Below, piece after piece: positions 7,561-15,651 of a stretch of DNA of 33,773 nt. Numbering within the stretch: the stretch's first letter is position 1; each line of letters opens with the position of its first letter. Below the pieces are notes generated by a model. The model saw nothing but the letters and a program-made list of their open reading frames with translations, was not told the origin of the DNA and ran no database searches. The stretch is from a virus (lineage: Duplodnaviria; Caudoviricetes): positions 1 to 33,773 of the IMG/VR virus record IMGVR_UViG_3300043296_000058. The stretch is one strand, 5' to 3'. The position numbers were made by a program, and so were the translations under genes.

Positions 7561-8144
7561 TGAGCTGTACCTTTGTTGTAAGTATTATTTAAAATCGTTG
7601 TTAACTCTTCCGTTAGAGTTGGCCATTTTTTAGCAATAACATCACTCCAGTTATCAACAACCCATTGCGCATCACCTGAGTTTATTATAATCAATTCAGT
7701 TTCTTCATCCTTTGGCGCGAAGTGGTTAATCATTTCCTGAACATATTTATTATCATTAAACTTTTTAAGAAATACATCAGCGTTAAAGCCTATTAATGAT
7801 AAGCACTTTGTTATGCCGTCAGTAGTAGCCTTTTTAAAGCAATCTGTGTCCTTTTTCTTCTGAGCGTTGTCGATGTATAAAGAAGCCTGCCCCCATTGGT
7901 CAAAGGTGTTAGCTTTGTCCGTGTGCCACATTCTAATCAACAGACCTAGTTCATTAGTTGGCAAATGCTCAACCTTAACGACTGACCAACCCCAGCCAAT
8001 ACCAACTGGGCCAAACTTAGCAGTAGCGTTTTTAATTTGCTGGTAGGGGTCGATAGCTGTTATCTTTCTGCCAAACGTCACCTCTGTAGTATGATCAGGG
8101 TTTGTTTTTTCTACGCTATCCCACAGCTTTAGATTATCGTTCAT
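7557..8144 (-). CDS. Putative ssDNA-annealing recombinase (Rad52/Sak-like)
   Basis: NLKLWDSVEKT.P...ITAIDP...FGPVGIGWGW...D.FKKATTDGITKCLS.IGF.ADVF; next to the exonuclease and SSB. Confidence 0.65.
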   Translation of the reverse strand: MNDNLKLWDSVEKTNPDHTTEVTFGRKITAIDPYQQIKNATAKFGPVGIGWGWSVVKVEHLPTNELGLLIRMWHTDKANTFDQWGQASLYIDNAQKKKDTDCFKKATTDGITKCLSLIGFNADVFLKKFNDNKYVQEMINHFAPKDEETELIIINSGDAQWVVDNWSDVIAKKWPTLTEELTTILNNTYNKGTAQ

Positions 8145-10298: not shown

Positions 10299-10910
10299 TT
10301 ATTCCATATCCTCGAACATCTCAATAACATCTTCACATAAAGGAGATCGAAAACATTTAGCTTCAGCAAAGTCTATAACGTTCATATTTTTATGTTTCAA
10401 CATGCCGTGATAAACCTTTTCTAAGCCTGAGCTTCTCTGGTTGTCACTGGTTTGTTTTAAATCTCCAGTTATCGCCATGCGTGTTTTTTTGCCTGTTCTA
10501 GTCATGAGTACATATAATTCGTTAAGTGTGCAGTTTTCAGCTTCATCAAGTATTAAAAATTCGCCGTCAATTGTGCGGCCTTGTAAGTGCTCGAAACTGG
10601 CAAAGGTAATAAATCCTTTTTCTGGGCATAGTGCTGCGGCTGGGAATACACCTAAATCAATCAATATGTCGGTTATATTTGCCATCCACGGATCAACTTT
10701 CTTATCCAGTTCTCCAGGCAGGAAACCGTAGCTTTTACCAAAGCTCACTGGTGGTCTAACAATGGTGATGTGGTAGTCTTTTTCGATTGCTGATTGCAGT
10801 GCTGCGCGGGTTTTTCCTGTTCCTGGTGGCCCTATTAGAAGTGTTATTGAATCTTTTTCTGTTTGCATTGCGCGCATTGCGCTTTGGTATATTTCGCCGC
10901 TGTCTCTCAT
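10299..10910 (-). CDS. phoH: PhoH-like ATPase
   Basis: GPPGTGKT, RP, GFLPGELDKK..PW, QGRT, ILDEAEN, TRTG, GDLKQ. Confidence 0.93.
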   Translation of the reverse strand: MRDSGEIYQSAMRAMQTEKDSITLLIGPPGTGKTRAALQSAIEKDYHITIVRPPVSFGKSYGFLPGELDKKVDPWMANITDILIDLGVFPAAALCPEKGFITFASFEHLQGRTIDGEFLILDEAENCTLNELYVLMTRTGKKTRMAITGDLKQTSDNQRSSGLEKVYHGMLKHKNMNVIDFAEAKCFRSPLCEDVIEMFEDME

Positions 10911-11592: not shown

Positions 11593-12297
11593 TTAATGGC
11601 CATGAATAACTAGGACCACTTCGCCATCATCTAAATACTTTTTAATTTCTAGCTGATAAAGTTCTGCAGTATCTTTCTGCTCCCAAACTCTATTGGCCCC
11701 GTTTGGTATTTTTGTTCTACGAATATTTTCAACAGTAAAATTTAATAAGCCTCCTTTTCTGTTAGTGGCCACGCTAATTAACTTTGCAAACTCCCACTTG
11801 GCCACGTGCTTTTTATTAGGGTTGAATGAATTTACAGTATCAATACATTCCATCGTGAACCATTCGCCTAGAATATGAAACTGCTTACAGGCCCTATGAA
11901 GCTTTTTCTCTATCTTAACTGCTTCTGCAGGCGTATTGGCTATGTAGTAACTCCAAAGTAAAACTAACTTAACTGGGTTCGCTGTCTGCAGTGATTTTAA
12001 TCTAGATTTCACATTGCTAGACATTCCCAGTTTAATTTGCTGGCCATTACTGATCGCATATAAATAATGCTTCTTGGCCACTGCAGGTTTTTTCTTTACA
12101 TAGGTTAATTGCTTGGCCAACTTCTTTTGTGCTGCAGTAAGATAATTATTTATTTGAAACCATTTAATTAACGATACTGCTTTTTGCTTATCATCGTGGC
12201 CAGTTGTCTTGGCCAATGAAAATCGTTTTAAATTAACTATGATCATTTCTTCATAGCTTAAGTGTGATTTATACTTCTTCTTTTTAGCTTTACTCAT
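11593..12297 (-). CDS. GIY-YIG superfamily nuclease, T5orf172/MUG113 type
   Basis: YLYAISNGQQIKLGMS.NV..RL..LQTANP..L.LL...EKKLH...F...GEWF. Confidence 0.85.
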   Translation of the reverse strand: MSKAKKKKYKSHLSYEEMIIVNLKRFSLAKTTGHDDKQKAVSLIKWFQINNYLTAAQKKLAKQLTYVKKKPAVAKKHYLYAISNGQQIKLGMSSNVKSRLKSLQTANPVKLVLLWSYYIANTPAEAVKIEKKLHRACKQFHILGEWFTMECIDTVNSFNPNKKHVAKWEFAKLISVATNRKGGLLNFTVENIRRTKIPNGANRVWEQKDTAELYQLEIKKYLDDGEVVLVIHGH

Positions 12298-12885
12298 AAC
12301 TATATCCCTTTCTTATCTCTAGATACTGTAATCAAGGATAACTTCCTCTGAGTATGTAGATAATAATAATAAGGTCCCCCTAAATTAATATTTCATCATT
12401 GATAACACGGATACAAGGTAAAGCATGGCCGTGATTTATAAAGTCGTGTTTAAACTCTTACTTTCCTGAGTGTAGGGATTTTTACAAGATACCAATTAAC
12501 TTGGCAGTGTGAACTATTCGGAATTACCTAATAGTTGATAATCTGTATTGTGAAATGAGCTATGGATAGTTGATTAGTTTATCTGTCACCTAGGTTTATC
12601 AATAACCATTATCAGGACATTCGCACTAGCTCACTTCACTAATACAGACTATAGAAGAAGCTTTGAAAGGGGTTGCGCGCGGATAGTCGATTAAGTTATC
12701 TGTCATCATTCCTAAGTTCTACGCACAAAAAAGGCTTATAGTTCAGCCCTAGATAATCGGGGTGGTAAAGATACTTGTGGAAGTTAATCCCACGAATACC
12801 ATAGACCTGAACTATAAACCCTCTTACCTTTACCAATTTACAAAGCAGCTTCCACACTGCTATCAATTAAACTTCAATTGACAAT
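12298..12885 (-). ncRNA. About 590-nt structured non-coding RNA or leader with a 5' C4/CI-like module
   Basis: No ORF of 60 aa or more. A 20-bp stem (12732-12751/12802-12821) and a 21-bp stem (12542-12562/12627-12648) whose imperfections are mostly G-U pairs only on the minus strand. Several further hairpins; own promoter. Confidence 0.6.
12564..12705. repeat. Two 25-bp direct repeats (22/25 identical)
   Basis: GGATAGTTGATTAGTTTATCTGTCA (12564-12588) and GGATAGTCGATTAAGTTATCTGTCA (12681-12705). Confidence 0.9.
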
Positions 12886-12889
12886 TACT

Positions 12890-12917
12890 ATTTTACACTA
12901 ACCTTGTTTATTTTCAA
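12890..12917 (-). promoter_or_regulatory. Sigma70-like promoter driving the structured RNA
   Basis: TTGAAA(12917-12912)-16-TAAAAT(12895-12890). Confidence 0.6.
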
Positions 12918-14561: not shown

Positions 14562-14628
14562 ATCTTAGTTCATTGGGGTTGACTTGTCTAATACTTTCTA
14601 TTATTATTTATAGAGTAAATATTAACTC
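14562..14628. promoter_or_regulatory. Overlapping divergent sigma70 promoters with palindromic operator
   Basis: Rightward TTGACT(14579-84)-17-TATTAT(14602-07). Leftward TAGACA(14590-85)-17-TAAGAT(14567-62). Near-perfect palindrome GAGTAAATATTAACTC at 14613-14628. Confidence 0.7.
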
Positions 14629-14644
14629 AATGGAAAACATATAT

Positions 14645-15064
14645 ATGAAACGTAATACAAAGATTAGTTGTGATGTAAGTAGAGAGGCCGATAATATGCT
14701 TAAGGCTTATTGTGCGAAGCATGAGCGCTCTAAAGGCTTTCTATTGGAGAAGATGATTAGAAAGTTTTGCGGTGGTGATATTGAGCCAGTGGCGGCGACT
14801 GAGGTTATCGTTGTTGAAAAGCCTAAACCTAAAGCTAAGCGCAAAGTATTTAAGCCACCAACAGTTGAAGAAGTTCGCGAGTATTGTGATTCGCGTTGTA
14901 ATGACGTTAACCCGCAAAAGTTTATTTCTCATTACACTGCAAATGGATGGGTTAGAGGTAAAGCTGAAACTAAAATTAAATGCTGGAAATCTTGCGTTCA
15001 AACTTGGGAAGGTAATAACAAGACACCAGTTAAATCAAATGAAAGTTTACAAGGGGATTGGTAA
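14645..15064 (+). CDS. RHH-like N-domain fused to a replisome-organiser (replication initiator) C-terminal domain
   Basis: N-terminal KISCDVSREADNMLKAYCAKHERSKGFLLEKMIRKF; C-terminal FKPPTVEEVREYC...PQKFISHY.ANGW..G...K.WK..V.TWE. Confidence 0.7.
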   Translation: MKRNTKISCDVSREADNMLKAYCAKHERSKGFLLEKMIRKFCGGDIEPVAATEVIVVEKPKPKAKRKVFKPPTVEEVREYCDSRCNDVNPQKFISHYTANGWVRGKAETKIKCWKSCVQTWEGNNKTPVKSNESLQGDW

Positions 15065-15651
15065 TGATTGATTCAGACAAGGCAAACTTTGAAGCGCTAC
15101 TACGCGGAATAGCTGATGTATTTAGCACCACTAAAACAATAGTTGTTAATCGTCCTATGCTGCAGGTTTATTTTATGTCACTTACTCAATACAGTTACGA
15201 TCAAGTTGAATGGGCTATCGGTGAACATTTAAAAGATCCCGTTGATGGAAAGTTTTTCCCTAAGCCAGCAAATATTATTAAACACCTACAGCAAACAGAA
15301 GTTAGCACTGAAGATAAGGCTATGTTGGCATGGGGTCAGATAATGCAGGAGTTACGAAAGCATGGTGCTTATGGCTCACTTAAGCTAGACGACAAACAAG
15401 CTATTGCGGCACTTGCTGCGGTTCATACTTGGAAAGACTTTTGTGCAATGCCTGAAAGCAACCTAACGTGGGCTAAAAAAGAATTCCTAGCTAACTATCG
15501 CACGTATGAAAATACACCCGCTGAATTACTTCCTAGCTCGTTACCTGGATTAGAGGAATTGCACGAACATAAACAGCAAGAAAAATGTAGTGATGCCGCT
15601 AGTATTTTAGAGAGCTTAAATAAAATGCGTTTGATTAATAAACAAAGTTAA
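15064..15651 (+). CDS. Replication-associated protein, DUF6475-like with helicase-loader-inhibitor-like N-terminus
   Basis: YF..L..YS.DQV..AI..HL.DP..GKFFPKPANII...A..AW...G.Y.S...DD; follows the replisome organiser. Confidence 0.7.
   Translation: MIDSDKANFEALLRGIADVFSTTKTIVVNRPMLQVYFMSLTQYSYDQVEWAIGEHLKDPVDGKFFPKPANIIKHLQQTEVSTEDKAMLAWGQIMQELRKHGAYGSLKLDDKQAIAALAAVHTWKDFCAMPESNLTWAKKEFLANYRTYENTPAELLPSSLPGLEELHEHKQQEKCSDAASILESLNKMRLINKQS

Follow-up and report, generated by a model that had tools for sequence, protein, structure and literature searches.

SegB of phage T4 is said to be a homing endonuclease of a tRNA cluster, which resembles the position of the gene analyzed here behind tRNA and small-RNA modules, and Odn is reportedly a chimeric, origin-directed nuclease whose DNA-binding domain comes from a satellite replication initiator. 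T5orf172 genes are regarded as putative homing endonucleases in the vibriophage ICP1 in the available text of PMC10448857. As far as that text describes them, these genes and Odn share with the present gene the nuclease subfamily, modular extra domains, and a variable presence and context (PMC10448857). The present gene is unlike them in its central nuclease domain, in a frame that is intact in all 15 loci, and in a covarying RNA leader. Neither site islands nor methylation were found for the ICP1 genes or Odn in the part of the source available (PMC10448857).

Phage genomes avoid restriction sites, and P1 pac sits inside a terminase gene. The words found here belong to the class that is avoided, and outside the nuclease gene there is a depletion of GGWCC and GGTACC, whereas the gene itself trends the opposite way, up to saturation. 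The island also resembles the cyanobacterial HIP1 and alternate HIPs, which the accessible portions of two sources describe as GC-rich coding palindromes that are tied to methyltransferases, swapped between lineages, and raise recombination when methylated (PMC4390886; 10.1101/2024.09.10.611283). HIPs are genome-wide with one word per genome, whereas the words here are confined to one 0.7-kb phage gene, number two to four, and are rare otherwise. A cluster of methylation words in a phage also recalls P1 pac, for which Dam methylation is needed in packaging according to the available text of PMC12707154, the cis function being that of pac. Unlike pac, which combines GATC with terminase, the locus lies 11 kb from the small terminase gene, GATC is not among the words used, and the words vary between alleles. 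Among open-licence papers and preprints, no report of site saturation inside a phage gene was found. The protein adds one new member to a known family, and for its multi-word, allele-switching saturation we could find no described counterpart.

Two Palindromes Saturate a Phage Nuclease Gene

The window, that is, the whole 33,773-nt stretch of viral DNA that was analyzed, contains a T5orf172/MUG113 (GIY-YIG) nuclease gene of 234 amino acids at 11593..12297 on the minus strand, identified by Pfam profiles, a structure model, and an alignment of 53 sequences. Within 11597..12215 lies an island of eight TGGCCA sites (11597, 11766, 11799, 12041, 12075, 12114, 12197, and 12210) and five CTGCAG sites (11664, 11925, 11986, 12081, and 12132). 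Three further GGNCC words are located within 11613..11894, GGACC at 11613 and GGCCC at 11695 and 11890. The gene carries 8 of the 11 TGGCCA and 5 of the 6 CTGCAG sites of the whole window. An earlier note, made by reading the sequence, had listed these 13 sites together with TGGCCA at 7620, 22608, and 26197 and CTGCAG at 15160 outside the gene; all coordinates were exact on recount, and the outside list proved to be complete. The back-to-back pair that it mentioned was located at 12075-12086. The spacing of the sites in the island is irregular (6–126 nt). Three codon phases were found, in line with the claim that sites fall in more than one phase and that the signal is at the DNA level.

Word enrichment far beyond chance was confirmed for the nuclease gene. 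Shuffling synonymous codons 20,000 times gave means of 1.79 for TGGCCA and 0.97 for CTGCAG and a maximum sum of 9, with 13 never reached; the enrichment therefore persists under the codon-preserving shuffle that the note had proposed as a check. A null model with the codon usage of the genome gave 0.55 and 0.50. The note was right about the enrichment but not about its expectation of 0.1 per hexamer, which is a base-composition value; the proper null is 0.5–1.8. When the window was scanned for clusters within 700 bp, TGGCCA and CTGCAG took the top two places among all hexamers. GGNCC was the third enriched word in the allele of the window (3 versus 0.34 expected, p = 0.001). Given the protein, every position at which synonymous codons can write these palindromes is used, 8 of 8 for TGGCCA and 5 of 5 for CTGCAG. 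The other 41 genes of the window use 3 of 89 and 1 of 113 possible positions (Fisher p 1e-9 and 3e-8 against the nuclease gene), and genome-wide over-representation of the HIP1 type is thus absent from the window. Outside the sites, GC3 of the gene is 0.32, and 24 other genes span 0.23–0.40.

The Predicted Protein and Its Domains

The GIY-YIG assignment in the note was borne out by matches to PF13455 (43.3 bits, cut-off 22.3) and PF10544 (24.1 bits, cut-off 20). The structure model of the 234-amino acid protein (pLDDT 84.8, pTM 0.56) comprises an N-terminal three-helix bundle, a central GIY-YIG domain, and a beta-rich C-terminal domain. Profile, alignment, and structure place the GIY-YIG/T5orf172 catalytic domain at residues about 76–160 (11818..12072, minus strand). 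Y78, Y80, G91, R99, E130, and H134, which from the GIY-YIG motif we take to be the catalytic residues, do not vary across the 53 aligned homologues, and neither does GEWF. Structure matches in BFVD were T5orf172/GIY-YIG proteins (E about 1e-6). VIA-align gave middling scores for HIGLE (Z 6.8, rmsd 3.4, 81 aligned), Slx1 (Z 6.4, rmsd 2.6, 80 aligned), and I-TevI (Z 5.5, rmsd 2.7, 70 aligned), and a Foldseek search against the PDB gave no match at E<=0.001. The modeled protein has a GIY-YIG fold and is a putative nuclease. PADLOC returned no match for it.

The C-terminal domain (residues 163–232; 11602..11811, minus strand) shows 41% identity over 70 amino acids to a stand-alone gene of 85 amino acids. 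This homologue is an unannotated gene (L024:11230-11487, plus strand) between the PfiAT and ParD toxin-antitoxin genes of PM2-like Vibrio prophages, and it is not annotated as RepA. For the domain itself there was no Pfam, PHROG, or NCBIfam family and no Atlas match, and its single-sequence model was too poor for a structure search (pLDDT 52.5). The first two domains form a broad family of 338 representatives at E<=1e-10; among the best 150 of these, the C-terminal domain was covered only by the long-form clade and one 73-amino acid piece. Exact-pattern scans of GTDB contigs with protein patterns or a 21-mer of the leader gave no cellular homologues.

Word Sets Differ between Alleles

Of 231 candidates, 60 were hits in the protein search, and 53 of these, the query included, were aligned as full-length. 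At the DNA level 15 distinct genes were compared, the one of the window included, after removal of duplicates (L001–L003, whose contigs equal L004–L006; L012, equal to L005; and L019, whose gene equals that of L007). Saturation was found in 11 of the 15 distinct alleles, which come from unrelated phage contexts, and the sets drawn from CTGCAG, TGGCCA, GGWCC, and GGTACC are allele-specific. To the question raised in the note of whether homologous genes and their donor genomes share the enrichment, the answer is yes for most of the homologues, and no cellular donor was found, all homologues being in virus or metagenome records. Summed over the 15 alleles, 50 of 59 possible positions are used for CTGCAG, 47 of 64 for TGGCCA, and 7 of 10 for GGTACC; the remaining 61 palindromic hexamers together use 139 of 1837. 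Individually significant were 11 alleles for CTGCAG, 8 for TGGCCA, 6 for GGWCC, and 3 for GGTACC. GATC (24 of 169) and CCWGG (4 of 89) are not enriched in the same alleles; the gene of the window holds two GATC. Word use is almost all-or-none per allele (permutation p<5e-5, 2e-4, and 0.012). Three long-form alleles are free of sites (L007, L018, and L011), and L010 holds two CTGCAG. The short-form genes, which lack the C-terminal domain (Vibrio phage 1.110.O, L028, and L031), are without all four words in 3 of 3 cases.

The enrichment is confined to the coding sequence, with 104 hexamer sites in 10,446 nt compared with 3 in 11,107 nt of flanks. Word sets vary between alleles that are 73–81% identical in DNA, and the four unrelated words interchange among proteins 69–84% identical without tracking the protein tree, 5 of 12 inner branches of which are well supported. 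The codons that create the sites differ between alleles and include variable residues. At site columns 55, 124, and 211, Ala alternates with K/E/D/T, TGGCCA is written through VAS, VAT, LAN, TGQ, and HGH, and GGTACC is written through GTV and GTE in L004. Ratios of GGACC to GGTCC are 4:1, 0:2, and 2:0; the middle base of GGWCC is thus free, which marks it as a word of protein recognition and not of RNA pairing.

A search for hidden non-palindromic or bipartite words in the site-poor alleles reached z of 5.5–5.7 on counts of mostly 3–6 with no shared word and was dismissed as noise. A test of possible positions at the protein level over the 53 sequences was set aside because shared ancestry confounds it, with CCGCGG in first place.

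A Conserved Leader and Mosaic Alleles

The gene is preceded by a conserved structured 5' leader of ~180 nt (12298..12475, minus strand; mean pairwise identity 0.845) with helices at 12464-12440, 12433-12406, and 12366-12313 and a Shine-Dalgarno-like GAAAGGG at 12312-12306 on the same strand. In a 32-pair consensus structure, 97.8% of cells are paired and both partners have changed in 15 pairs (0 of 500 shuffles), with 28–52% paired in slid controls; these controls flatter the structure, since it was derived from the same alignment. No Rfam 15 family matched the leader at gathering score: only two tRNAs were found in 8 sources, and the best E value on 12200-12900 was 1.8, which is at chance level. 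The leader belongs with both long- and short-form T5orf172 genes, including that of the cultured Vibrio phage 1.110.O, and its central hairpin is also found 5' of short-form genes.

Neighboring genes differ in the six long loci, a sporadic presence in unrelated contexts as for free-standing homing endonuclease genes. The reading frame is open in 15 of 15 loci, although L017 ends at the contig end, P0055 may be frameshifted, and the searches favor whole genes. The alleles are mosaic: the nearest neighbor shifts along the gene, local incompatibility is 0.447 versus 0.497 when permuted (0 of 300 as low; calculated for this gene family only), and near-identical tracts of 54–88 nt join otherwise diverged alleles. 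An apparent proximity of tract ends to sites (p = 0.006 on 39 non-independent ends) was rejected, as 19 distinct ends gave a mean of 15.4 versus 18.0 nt (p = 0.28).

Genome Context and Word Avoidance

The window (38.8% GC) represents most of a P22-like podophage genome, with small terminase (121-615), coat, scaffold, ejection, and tail-accessory genes as well as NinB, NinG, and PhoH; replication genes lie at 14573-15651. The PhoH-like gene, at 10299-10910 on the minus strand, was observed in a small P22-like phage here. The scan of 45 ORFs of the window gave no large terminase, portal, integrase, or methyltransferase gene, so the sequence probably falls short of the whole genome by a few kb, although CheckV puts it at 98%. 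The sequencing run that best represents this DNA is a marine sediment metagenome, which may be its source. The integrase profile PF00589 was found in 0 of 5 related records and, likewise, not among the window ORFs. The best cultured matches (proteins of 27–44% identity) are from phages of Vibrio, Shewanella, Thalassomonas, Aeromonas, and others, which points loosely to marine Gammaproteobacteria as hosts.

The four words, which we take to be the recognition sequences of MscI/BalI, PstI, KpnI, and AvaII, are uncommon in the remainder of the window. Observed counts outside the gene, with order-2 expectations in parentheses, are 1 (6.1) for CTGCAG, 3 (8.2) for TGGCCA, 0 (4.8) for GGTACC, and 1 (17.4) for GGWCC. 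None of the possible positions in the other 41 genes is used for GGTACC (0 of 72), GGACC (0 of 155), or GGTCC (0 of 157), and of the sole two GGWCC in the window one lies in the nuclease gene and one in the leader. In six pooled records, observed/expected ratios under an order-3 model are 0.80 for CTGCAG and 0.84 for TGGCCA, a weak depletion, and 0.09 for GGTACC and 0.46 for GGACC, a strong one. In the complete record G001, 14 CTGCAG lie between 6.3 and 22.4 kb and the other 15 kb are without CTGCAG except for the nuclease gene, a case of regional avoidance.

The whole window contains zero ATCGAT, AGTACT, AGGCCT, GAGCTC, GGTACC, and CCSGG. CCNGG occurs almost solely where Pro-Gly forces it, with 1 of 747 free positions used. 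The avoided words ATCGAT, AGTACT, CCSGG, GAGCTC, and non-forced CCNGG have not been collected by the allele of the window. A Rha/ANT antirepressor gene (G005:30248-30880; L041:10248-10880, plus strand) holds 4 of the 5 CTGCAG of its record and 3 CTCGAG. Among 68 distinct Rha/ANT sequences (79 loci), enrichment of CTGCAG and CTCGAG was found in this gene only. This example, from a complete record, shows that islands of this kind do not depend on a nuclease.

Possible Role of Host Methylation

Profiles of C5 and N6/N4 methyltransferases gave no match in the window or in G001, the two most complete of the site-rich records. PF00145 was found in one of five records (G002, directly upstream of the gene) and PF01555 in 0 of 5; a phage-encoded type II restriction-modification pair, with a methyltransferase beside the nuclease, was not found. 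As the methyltransferase families searched are absent from the window and G001, and a C5 enzyme occurs in G002 only, the enzymes are probably those of the host, and it is very probable that host enzymes methylate the words. Some CTGCAG methylases, such as AplI, are reportedly C5 enzymes. In the site-poor sisters L010 and L011, three of four distinct one-base CTGCAG losses are of the inner-C deamination type (CTGTAG, and CTACAG twice) and two alter the residue, a tiny number of cases that hints at C5 methylation. One-base neighbors of TGGCCA and GGWCC showed no clear deamination pattern. Cytosine methylation would also explain why GATC is unused. TGGCCA (m5C) and GGWCC (m4C) have been detected as methylated motifs in marine metagenomes, according to the accessible text of PMC8919816.

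We tentatively favor a reading in which host methylation biases allele exchange toward marked copies, so that the nuclease cassette becomes recoded with restriction-modification-type words. The gene would be recoded codon by codon into such palindromes, host methyltransferases would mark them, and the marked copy would be spared nicking and serve as the repair template when cassette alleles recombine; the bias toward the marked copy would then drive the sites to saturation. The methyl-sensitive nick in the heteroduplex, which might be made by this nuclease or by a host Vsr or mismatch-type pathway, is the least supported step. In a phage lineage whose host lacks the methylase, the drive would be lost and the sites would decay. 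The methyl mark is favored as the useful state because cutting should select against the sites. Since flanking genes differ between phages, pairing is limited to the gene and leader, which would account for the confinement, and since the leader is constrained by its structure, a methylation-dependent bias acting on this shared DNA would fill exactly the coding sequence. Saturation, confinement, allele-specific sets, the scarcity of the words among the remaining genes of the window, mosaic alleles, and the conserved catalytic motif are all observed and support a drive of this kind. In the available portions of two sources, methylated HIP1 sites are stated to raise integration of donor DNA about 100-fold (10.1101/2024.09.10.611283), and methyl-directed repair is modeled as creating such palindromes (PMC4390886). 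Against the drive, 13 extra sites should be costly on unmethylated entry if cognate endonucleases exist. Avoidance elsewhere is uneven, being weak for CTGCAG and TGGCCA (G001 keeps its 14 CTGCAG), and GATC, CCWGG, and other avoided words are not enriched in the gene. The all-or-none use despite mosaicism looks more like whole-phage selection than passive drive, and the Rha/ANT island of G005 is a further point against it. That a selfish cassette collects the words its current host methylates, and that in mixed infections gene conversion favors the allele with the denser marks, is possible but doubtful.

Selection on the gene itself is central to a second, rather unlikely explanation, in which host marks silence or time a toxic nuclease and fast replication dilutes the marks and releases expression, a methyl clock like that of P1 pac. 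Both the ORF confinement and the all-or-none use per allele fit such gating, the covarying leader and a possible anti-Shine-Dalgarno motif point to tight control, and the other island lies in a regulatory Rha/ANT gene. P1 likewise requires Dam methylation at pac in the available text of PMC12707154. However, the Dam and Dcm words are unused here, and an endonuclease, if present, would cut unmethylated progeny. Moreover, we know of no reader for four unrelated words, and to our knowledge gene-body methylation seldom blocks bacterial elongation. The same absence of Dam and Dcm words, with the use of words typical of complete type II systems, would suit a restriction fuse or break hotspot, where host type II endonucleases cut the sites and either destroy the toxic ORF or feed allele exchange and recombination-dependent replication. 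Several words are rare elsewhere and the alleles are mosaic, as this would predict, but we consider it unlikely: the ends of shared tracts lie no nearer to sites than chance (p = 0.28, 19 ends), contigs of 4 runs, which drop rare variants, contain no site-to-site deletion forms, a cut allele normally loses in repair, and the non-coding flanks would be equally suitable yet are without sites.

The note had offered three alternatives, namely import, target sites of the nuclease or of a modification enzyme, and an origin or protein-loading array. Sites of a modification enzyme, likely that of the host, survive from the second of these. Binding or cutting of the words by the encoded protein, in an autoregulatory or origin-like array, is very unlikely even though the two extra domains could bind DNA in the model, 3 of 3 short-form genes without the C-terminal domain are also without sites, and I-TevI can act as a repressor in the accessible text of PMC10448857. 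Four unrelated words are swapped off-tree among proteins 69–84% identical, 3 of 15 alleles (the long-form L007, L018, and L011) have none, and the spacing is irregular. This spacing, the change of word between alleles, and the position of the replication genes at 14573-15651 tell equally against an origin or loading array. Selection of self-complementary words for mRNA folding or multimerization is highly improbable. Against 25 synonymous shuffles, folding of six site-rich genes gave z of -0.85 to -2.65 and that of two site-free genes +0.45 and -0.69, and in the minimum-energy fold about half of the sites are base-paired to a second site; nevertheless, any repeated palindrome yields such a modest gain as a by-product, sets of only GGACC or only GGTCC cannot self-pair, and the rarity of the words in other genes is left unexplained. 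Horizontal transfer from a genome rich in highly iterated palindromes would suit a gene that is mobile between phage contexts, but it is hardly credible where 73–85% of possible positions are filled and sites were gained at allele-specific codons. In addition, GC3 is normal, the exact-pattern scans of GTDB gave no homologue, the co-travelling flanks and leader are not enriched, and the sets differ at 73–81% DNA identity. A model has to account for the saturation, the confinement to the frame, the use of several unrelated words, the switching between alleles, and the scarcity of the words in other genes. As import, an origin array, and own-target binding fall short of this, recognition by host restriction-modification enzymes remains.

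Phages are expected to shed restriction sites, and this gene family does the reverse, so that host enzymes would give a local advantage that is absent from current models. If the drive by host methylation is true, it would be an epigenetic gene drive, and the methylome of an uncultured host would be readable from the word set of an allele. Provided that the words mirror host methylases, they would give access to the hosts of uncultured phages from sequence alone. The system is small and lends itself to testing, since it comprises a 0.7-kb gene, alleles that are naturally site-rich or site-free, and enzyme specificities that are commercially standard.

The Upstream RNA Cassette

A motif complementary to the Shine-Dalgarno-like word lies at 12660..12672 (minus strand); in 12 of 19 loci its CCC/CCTTTC core was found at no more than 620 nt upstream, with several others too short. 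The distance between motif and Shine-Dalgarno-like word is variable, about 200–380 nt in many loci, and the motif is a possible long-range anti-Shine-Dalgarno element that would block translation. Further upstream, a long hairpin ending in a T run (12728..12825, minus strand), common to L028, L031, and L032, forms part of a modular tRNA/small-RNA cassette, which in related phages lies ahead of the gene. tRNA genes are directly upstream in L006, L010, and phage 1.110.O. On balance, the cassette probably behaves as a free-standing homing endonuclease gene attached to a tRNA/small-RNA cluster. Contigs of two runs skip 146 bases (12508-12655), which indicates that the upstream small-RNA cassette is modular. 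A short hairpin module at 12470-12510 (minus strand) had a summed contig depth far above that of the gene in four marine runs and is therefore probably present in many more phages than the gene.
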